This document shows positions 36,458-36,532 of a DNA stretch of 64,000 bases, in pieces. The translations under genes and the position numbers were made by a program. Source of the DNA: Octopus vulgaris (taxonomy: Eukaryota); NCBI GenBank assembly GCA_951406725.2, contig OX597826.1, positions 25,420,001-25,484,000 of the forward strand, read 5' to 3'. Each line of letters opens with the position of its first letter. Within the stretch, counting starts at the first letter, position 1. Under the pieces are notes generated by a model that searched no databases, was not told where the DNA came from, and worked only from the letters and a program-made list of their open reading frames with translations.

Positions 36458-36532
36458 TCTTCAGTCAGAAACCGATTCCTCATCGCAGATTTCGGCTGTT
36501 TAATTCTGAGATCCGCTCTGAATCGGCCAGCC
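36458..36532 (-). ncRNA. Non-circularly permuted (CUGANGA-last) hammerhead, copy 2 (best preserved), in element 36376-36632
   Basis: Minus strand: IIa ggctg / P ccgattc / IIIb gcggaT-C / Ib tcagaa / IIb cagcc-GAA-Atctgc / P' gaatcgg / Ia ttctga-CTGAAGA; all four helices pair fully (one G.U). Confidence 0.78.

Follow-up and report, generated by a model that had tools for sequence, protein, structure and literature searches.

Hammerhead ribozymes have been divided into three blocks, C, G and S, each assumed to be uninterruptible, which gives six possible orders (Eckert, Friedrich, Weinberg and Weinberg 2023, PMC10085705). In the text of that study CUGAnGA and helix II are likewise assumed to be inseparable. 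Counts from metatranscriptomes and metagenomes were given there for the types SGC (583 sequences, HRIMA-1), CSG (two) and GCS (one); both SGC and CSG were found to cleave in vitro, and in each a further helix links stem I to stem II. The only organism that the text connects with these three types is one bacterium, with one GCS candidate.

Hammerheads are also carried by mobile elements of animals. Non-LTR retrozymes are thought to be moved by Penelope-like elements via circular RNA (Cervera and de la Pena 2020, PMC7229834; Li, Clavereau and Pollet 2026, preprint 10.64898/2026.07.22.740005). In the text of both sources they are non-coding head-to-tail repeats with one hammerhead per unit, of type I and found by type I descriptors. 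The Naiads, a group of Penelope-like elements that target (TA)n, were reported to lack canonical hammerheads and to have only ‘cores’ and ‘half cores’, with eight consensi flagged ‘HHR_half_core’ (Craig, Yushenova, Rodriguez and Arkhipova 2021, main text and files, PMC8557442).

The window analysed here is a stretch of 64,000 nucleotides from Octopus vulgaris (contig OX597826.1, positions 25,420,001 to 25,484,000). A first-pass annotation, made from the letters alone, had placed all hammerhead core nucleotides, helices I–III and an additional helix P at 36532–36458 on the minus strand; re-reading the sequence and recomputing the coordinates gave the same result (Table 1). The order from 5′ to 3′ is IIa-P-IIIb-C17-Ib-IIb-GAA-IIIa-P′-Ia-CUGAAGA, and the core (C3 U4 G5 A6 N7 G8 A9, G12 A13 A14, A15.1–U16.1 and H17) is complete, with a score of 20/20 on a pseudoknot-aware descriptor. 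We found in addition a helix X, absent from the first-pass description, in which the bases after A9 pair with bases 5′ of IIa (pair probability ∼0.8 in nested folding of this copy). Helix X starts 2 nt past A9 here and directly past A9 in most other families. A hairpin Y, which lies between X and IIa in other families, is missing from family A, to which this copy belongs, and has been lost by it. Nested folding gave P and III probabilities of ∼0.5, with helix II appearing as the excluded alternative (0.44). Plain folding gave no stability signal for the motif (z +1.46), as expected where two helices are pseudoknots.

Table 1. Positions of the motif, its parts and related features (window positions unless a locus is named)
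Feature	Position	Strand	Basis or remark
5′-truncated copy of non-coding family A	36368..36633	−	similarity; 97% identical to longer copy L001
(TA)30 microsatellite targeted by the insertion, at the 3′ end of the element	36317..36376	.	sequence
Core of split reversed-order hammerhead, family A copy	36458..36532	−	sequence, descriptor and covariation
IIa	36532–36528	−	recomputed coordinates
P	36526–36520	−	recomputed coordinates
IIIb	36516–36511	−	recomputed coordinates
H17 = C, with the predicted cut 3′ of it, separating plus positions 36510 and 36509	36510	−	analogy with hammerhead core
Ib	36509–36504	−	followed by 5-nt linker to IIb
IIb	36498–36494	−	recomputed coordinates
GAA	36493–36491	−	recomputed coordinates
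IIIa	36490–36485	−	recomputed coordinates
P′	36478–36472	−	recomputed coordinates
Ia	36470–36465	−	recomputed coordinates
CUGAAGA	36464–36458	−	recomputed coordinates
Helix X 5′ arms, two of 5 bp (36540–36536, 36548–36544), 3-nt link to IIa	36536..36548	−	folding
Helix X 3′ arms (36455–36451, 36446–36442)	36442..36455	−	folding
Family B motif copy, H17 = U, one helix II mismatch	25742..25817	+	descriptor; element ∼25665–25956
Family C motif copy	40195..40267	+	descriptor; element ∼40005–40403
Family C-related motif copy	54339..54411	−	descriptor; element ∼54218–54491
Family D motif copy, decayed, U16.1 lost	55864..55935	+	descriptor; element ∼55744–56058
Twister-P5 matches behind Naiad-like ORFs	L347:3858–3916, L350:3490–3546	sense	36.3 and 35.3 bits, cut-off 37.6
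SECIS-like hairpins downstream of Naiad-like ORFs, three metagenome loci	L340:1987–2048, L375:3720–3786, L401:3095–3159		

The layout bears out two further points of the first-pass annotation, that the core strands run in reverse relative to types I–III and that A9 is not joined to helix II. Types I–III share the cyclic order C-G-S, which is reversed here, and form a three-way junction free of pseudoknots. As the first-pass annotation expected of standard descriptors, Rfam gave no hammerhead match to the motif at E ≤ 10, and over the whole 64-kb window only microsatellite-driven miRNA noise. The likeness to SGC, CSG and GCS is close, with the same core bases, a reversed cyclic block order and a short link from stem I to stem II (3–6 nt in the form described here). 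The difference is that block C (Ia-CUGAnGA-IIa) is whole in those types, whereas here IIa comes first and CUGAnGA last, with X, and usually Y, at the nick. Block C allows at most 1–2 nt between A9 and position 10.1; IIa lies ∼70 nt upstream of A9, and we call this layout the split form. The first-pass annotation had asked for the novelty of the fold to be checked: reversed strand order is already published as types SGC, CSG and GCS (text of PMC10085705). New are the break in the chain at A9|G10.1, helix X that closes it, and the finding of such a form in retroelements of animals. SGC, CSG, GCS and the split form may be seen as four openings of one ring. Their habitats differ, the split form being present in tens of thousands of copies in an animal genome.

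The PK hammerhead of PDB entry 8YDC (Zhan et al. 2024, text of PMC11300833) is similar in having its core held by pseudoknots and an extra helix, and is fully active. We weighed it as an earlier example of a detached IIa but discarded it, since it keeps A9 joined to G10.1 and the canonical strand order. In the open article text of the literature on permuted hammerheads, Naiads, Penelope elements, octopus and core insertions we found no description of an A9|G10.1 opening or of permuted hammerheads in Naiads. No such opening is described in the accessible text of Forgia 2023 (PMC10162972), Perreault 2011 (PMC3088659), the Lopez-type virus paper (PMC13725137), PMC13159263 or PMC6962438, and the literature covered contains no hammerhead opened at A9|G10.1 with activity.

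We scored all 39 CUGAnGA sites of the window with the layout descriptor. The copy at 36458–36532 had been called the best of five and is so, with 20/20 against 19 for 25811+, 40261+ and 54345− (the only other sites at this level) and 16 for 55929+; unrelated CUGAnGA sites reach at most 16. The statement that the other four copies keep the same pairings is right for the three with 19 and only partly so for 55929+, which has lost U16.1 and part of helix III; its family keeps the pairings. The five copies fall in four families of a much larger set, whose layout ties them to Naiad Penelope-like elements. A 2.5-kb (TA)n-type array at 25950–28440 directly follows the family B copy.

The size of this set was examined in the genome assembly (2.8 Gb, 227 contigs). 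A pairing-blind pattern, specifying only core bases, order and spacing, gave 32,903 matches against 2,735 for a reversed-pattern control, a 12-fold enrichment. Among the first 30 matches, 17 kept at least 17 of the 19 scored pairs, the others being decayed, 5′-truncated or chance. Extrapolated from one contig end, there are ∼30,000 core-bearing copies, perhaps half of them complete. The pseudoknot-aware descriptor, a check that the first-pass annotation had asked for, gave 115 matches in 120 family loci, which were picked by similarity, against 0.33 per block-shuffled replicate. Family A alone had 2,343 first-look candidates, of which the 40 scored were 97–100% identical over 131 nt; copies on three contigs were 100% identical over that length, and the family is young. 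Candidates elsewhere numbered 1,731 for family B, 206 for family C, 1,798 for family D and 2,185 for family E.

To measure covariation, we aligned by sequence 24 A/C/D-lineage copies (14 pairing-blind matches, six other loci and four window copies); the other 16 of the 30 pairing-blind matches belonged to other lineages, were truncated or were a tandem duplicate. Starts were trimmed by hand, and helix P lies one column off in the family D rows. The core was invariant in this alignment, and helices I, II, III and P covaried. Pairing was seen in 90.5% of cells versus 80.4% after shuffling and 13–49% in slid controls. Double-sided changes occurred in 64 cells versus 20.3 in shuffles, none of 500 shuffles reaching 64, and 13 of 21 pairs changed on both sides, a number matched in three of 500. 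Helices I, II and III were each 95–97% paired, with double changes at three or four of five pairs. Of five measures of covariation, one, the count of further pair types, did not exceed its control. The first-pass annotation had named a lack of significant covariation in a genome-wide alignment as evidence against itself; the covariation score was 0.385 versus 0.190 (0 of 500 shuffles), in a shuffle test that the relatedness of the copies inflates.

A chance resemblance inside a common repeat is extremely improbable given these figures. The genome is repeat-rich, descriptors select for pairing and plain folding shows no stability, all of which such an explanation could draw on; it is already contradicted by the pairing-blind enrichment, by covariation in an alignment built on sequence and by the strand- and position-specific recurrence of the motif behind Naiad-type ORFs in unrelated metagenome samples, with empty nulls, described below.

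A wider set of 200 descriptor matches, selected for pairing, gave 19 clusters at ∼80% identity, with unrelated sequences and the same layout; about four of the 19 are mis-parsed, decayed or chance. Several pair types occur in the 200 matches at every position of I, II, III and P except A15.1–U16.1, and H17 is A, C or U, never G, in intact families. In most clusters X begins at or just after A9 and hairpin Y precedes IIa. Across the 19 clusters P′ lies 0–5 nt before Ia and P 0–3 nt after IIa, and the linkers between P and III range from 0 to 28 nt. The first-pass annotation had described P as an extension of helix III, a reading that we dropped: in every family P′ sits against Ia and P against IIa, the linkers to III being variable, and P is best read as the helix of stem I–II interaction (‘I’ in SGC and CSG). 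The distal parts of stems I and II would thus be joined by a helix as in the published types, an equivalence drawn from the text of PMC10085705.

The active form might instead be an ordinary unsplit SGC, whose helix II would use the bases that directly follow CUGAnGA, or two tandem units might act as a dimer; the IIa upstream would then be an alternative or inhibitory pairing. Three to four pairs, mostly G-U, are possible after A9 in families B, E and F and in some of the metagenome copies, a weaker G-rich strand there could also pair with IIb in B, E and F, and the 36458–36532 copy has a 4-bp pairing 5 nt after A9 (−4.8 versus −6.8 kcal/mol); one published consensus, Naiad_Smim, is an unsplit SGC by eye. 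In the A/C/D lineage, however, the downstream strand gives only 0–2 pairs, against an upstream helix II that is 95.8% paired in the 24 copies with double changes at three of five pairs. The bases after A9 are taken up by helix X, and a dimer is at odds with most copies being single rather than tandem. We regard the unsplit and dimeric forms as quite improbable and retain the split form.

The families carrying the motif behave as mobile elements. The fixed 3′ end of the family A copy enters (TA)n at ∼36376, with the motif ∼85 nt from that end, and the insertion pattern is one of (TA)n, fixed 3′ end, variable 5′ truncation and partial tandems. The distance from motif to 3′ end is fixed within each family (88, 139–140 and ∼125–140 nt). 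Together with copy number, this pattern supports the earlier proposal of a putative ribozyme belonging to a mobile family embedded in microsatellites. The family A unit is ∼730 nt and non-coding (longest ATG frame 40 aa). Tandem periods are 732, 804–882, 724 and 713 nt, with one hammerhead per non-coding unit; head-to-tail copies or copies wrapping around the unit junction were seen at L009/L024, L001, L022 and L030, most copies being single. The units of 713–882 nt resemble non-LTR retrozymes in being non-coding head-to-tail repeats with a single hammerhead each, a likeness seen at the level of genomic repeats; the retrozymes differ in their type I hammerheads (text of PMC7229834 and 10.64898/2026.07.22.740005). 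To Naiads the likeness is in (TA)n targeting, 5′ truncation and partial tandems, and the difference is that the family A element has no ORF and shares only the motif layout (text of PMC8557442). No homology of family A to a Naiad was detected beyond that layout, and 12 Naiad-like proteins compared with the window and the family A–E loci gave no match.

Naiad-type ORFs carry the motif in their 3′ UTR, both in this genome and in metagenome loci, as do the published consensi of octopus and squid (files of PMC8557442). One repeat of the genome is near-identical to the published Octopus Naiad consensi; a 16-mer of the Ovul motif has 603 genome matches versus none for a control, and upstream of the Ovul-type motif are broken ORFs with Naiad-type endonuclease and RT strings. 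The motif was downstream of such broken ORFs, on the sense strand, at L184 and at five of 20 fetched genome loci. Their RT finds 1,920 relatives, and six of ten full-length RT relatives had an N-terminal GIY-YIG match, the consensus carrying CxC and DKA. This family, N, thus has the features of a Naiad ORF (N-terminal GIY-YIG, CxC, DKA, C-terminal RT) in broken form; the family A unit, being non-coding, has none. All Naiad ORFs found in the genome were broken, as noted for cephalopods by Craig et al. (text of PMC8557442).

The intact ORFs that were found are, from their sequence, Neptune-like, with RT, a zinc-finger-like linker and C-terminal GIY-YIG; none of eight such loci had a motif of this kind of its own. 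Intact Neptune-like RT/GIY-YIG frames of 781–785 aa lie on the minus strand at L406:2743–5098 and L407:2644–4987, preceded by an overlapping 390–430-aa frame, and could encode the enzyme by which the non-coding families are moved. No coding partner for families A–E was identified among the Naiad-type remnants or the Neptune-like loci. A short-word protein search found nothing, and no relative of Naiads turned up in viral contigs. It may be that an intact Naiad escaped detection, or that another clade now mobilises families A–E in trans.

The best 80 of 392 Naiad-like metagenome loci were searched with a descriptor open to all block orders. The strict version found nine split and four CSG motifs, all on the sense strand and downstream of the ORF, with one null match in two shuffles; the relaxed version found 11 split (L345 parses loosely) and four CSG, with none in three shuffles. 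No canonical hammerhead was found in the 80. The split form or CSG is present in 15 of the 65 loci whose 3′ flank is 250 nt or longer, and Rfam gave no hammerhead in these 15. Sixty-five of the 80 loci (L326–L405) have no detectable hammerhead of any order; 15 have less than 250 nt of 3′ flank. A quick protein tree, made with no test of clades, places the split form in several branches and CSG in one, and gives no order of events. Several whole branches of it are free of detectable hammerheads and could have other or unrecognised ribozymes.

Two of 40 loci without the motif have a twister-P5 match just below the Rfam cut-off at the position of the motif, and the site accordingly looks like a slot for ribozymes. 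Two clam consensi of the published Naiad set end, by eye, in what we take to be twister-like strings. SECIS-like hairpins also lie behind Naiad-like ORFs at three metagenome loci (Table 1). Hairpins of this kind are a feature of selenoprotein Naiads of spiders and clams as well.

The 3′ ends of 24 of the 54 published Naiad consensi (PMC8557442, supplementary records) were read by eye. The split form was recognized in Naiad_Ovul, in the preceding record (Obim), in Naiad_Esco, where helix II is imperfect, and, with X and Y, in the record that precedes Naiad_Ppla and that the file order makes an ostracod. CSG was recognized in four records, those preceding Nbra-1, Hcon, Asuum and Lpol, which by file order are nematodes and probably a spider, and SGC in Naiad_Smim. 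Seven of the eight flagged half cores resolve by eye as split, CSG or SGC, four of them named by file order only. The record before Naiad_Smim in File S5 is a possible further SGC, with U3–A8 replacing C3–G8 and a long insert between Ib and IIb. None of these forms was seen in the other 14 consensi read, which include six bivalves and Dst-3. Oyster and hemichordate consensi in the same file (before Naiad_Sglo and Naiad_Tgra; Naiad-1_Skow) share a conserved, non-hammerhead 3′ motif of ∼90 nt where others have a ribozyme, and this may be an unrecognised ribozyme.

The 5′ ends of the copies bear on how the RNA is used. Of 90 Naiad-family copies picked by their 3′ part only, three have a 5′ end within 2 nt of the predicted cut and 77 read past it. 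Cut linear RNA as the usual template was rejected on the lack of a pile-up at that site, and since tandem copies also cross two predicted cut sites the template would be a circle or uncut RNA. The pattern of 5′ ends neither shows nor excludes cleavage. Contigs from three presumed-RNA runs and one large run of unspecified kind covered the elements partially, with ends and joints that are uninformative, as contigs cannot show ends or circles.

These data invite the explanation that the fold is real and hammerhead-derived and acts mainly as a structural signal, binding or positioning a Penelope-type enzyme near an internal start, with the nick making cleavage slow or conditional. Most copies are written through the predicted cut site and the distance from motif to 3′ end is fixed within each family, as such a signal would have it; another Penelope element, that of an anole, inserted in vitro without needing cleavage, and none of the reads stopped at its cut site (text of PMC11167929). 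Circles would give the same read-through, however, and a structural role does not account for the catalytic bases, A15.1–U16.1 and an H17 that is never G in intact families being kept across unrelated families, or for twister-like RNAs standing in for the motif in some relatives. We consider a mainly structural role unlikely, though less so than the unsplit or dimeric forms.

Our preferred reading is that the motif is an active hammerhead ribozyme of reversed cyclic order whose ring is opened at a fourth place, A9|G10.1, and that it serves as the 3′-UTR ribozyme of many Naiad-type elements and of non-coding, retrozyme-like families; we put the probability of this, and of the predicted activity of the split layout, at about 0.78. 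Helix X, running from right after A9 to the strand 5′ of IIa, usually with Y between, would hold the two ends at the nick, and P would clamp stems I and II. By hammerhead chemistry and the example of the retrozymes (text of PMC7229834), head-to-tail transcripts would be cut after C17 into unit-length RNAs, which would at least partly be closed into circles. A Penelope-type reverse transcriptase/GIY-YIG enzyme would then nick (TA)n, and copying would start inside the RNA, 85–140 nt 3′ of the core depending on family (∼85 in family A), an internal start suggested by Penelope biochemistry (text of PMC11167929). Copying would run through the cut site and round the unit junction, for which a religated or uncut template is needed.

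With less assurance, we also think it rather probable that this is a seventh natural active hammerhead layout and the long-missed ribozyme of much of the Naiad clade, that all reversed-order hammerheads (split, CSG and SGC) have their genomic home in Naiads, and that it drives dozens of octopus retrozyme-like families with some 30,000 copies, overlooked by all present descriptors. The set of layouts, argued to be closed at six, would then gain a member, and the rule that CUGAnGA and helix II form one block would be broken. For part of the clade it would overturn the published absence of hammerheads in Naiads, which has served as an argument that Penelope-like elements carry hammerheads as passengers they can do without. 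With only two sequences known before, the CSG type gains a host and context, and the role of the ribozyme in Penelope-type transposition becomes testable on young, abundant and short elements. The core-bearing copies in this one genome would make up a large hidden class of ribozymes in animals, as compared with ∼5,000 type I copies reported for a mussel (text of PMC7229834). A ribozyme that ends in CUGAnGA and a closing helix would also be a new scaffold for switches.

Elsewhere in the window are long near-perfect inverted repeats (884–1160 and 15712–16433), either MITE-like or formed by Penelope-type insertions in inverted orientation. At 3244+ and 2980−, an inverted pair within ∼2898–3329, and at 3585− there are hammerhead cores of canonical, type I-like form. 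The cores of the inverted pair probably belong to another Penelope-like family, and canonical and rewired hammerheads coexist in the genome of Octopus vulgaris.
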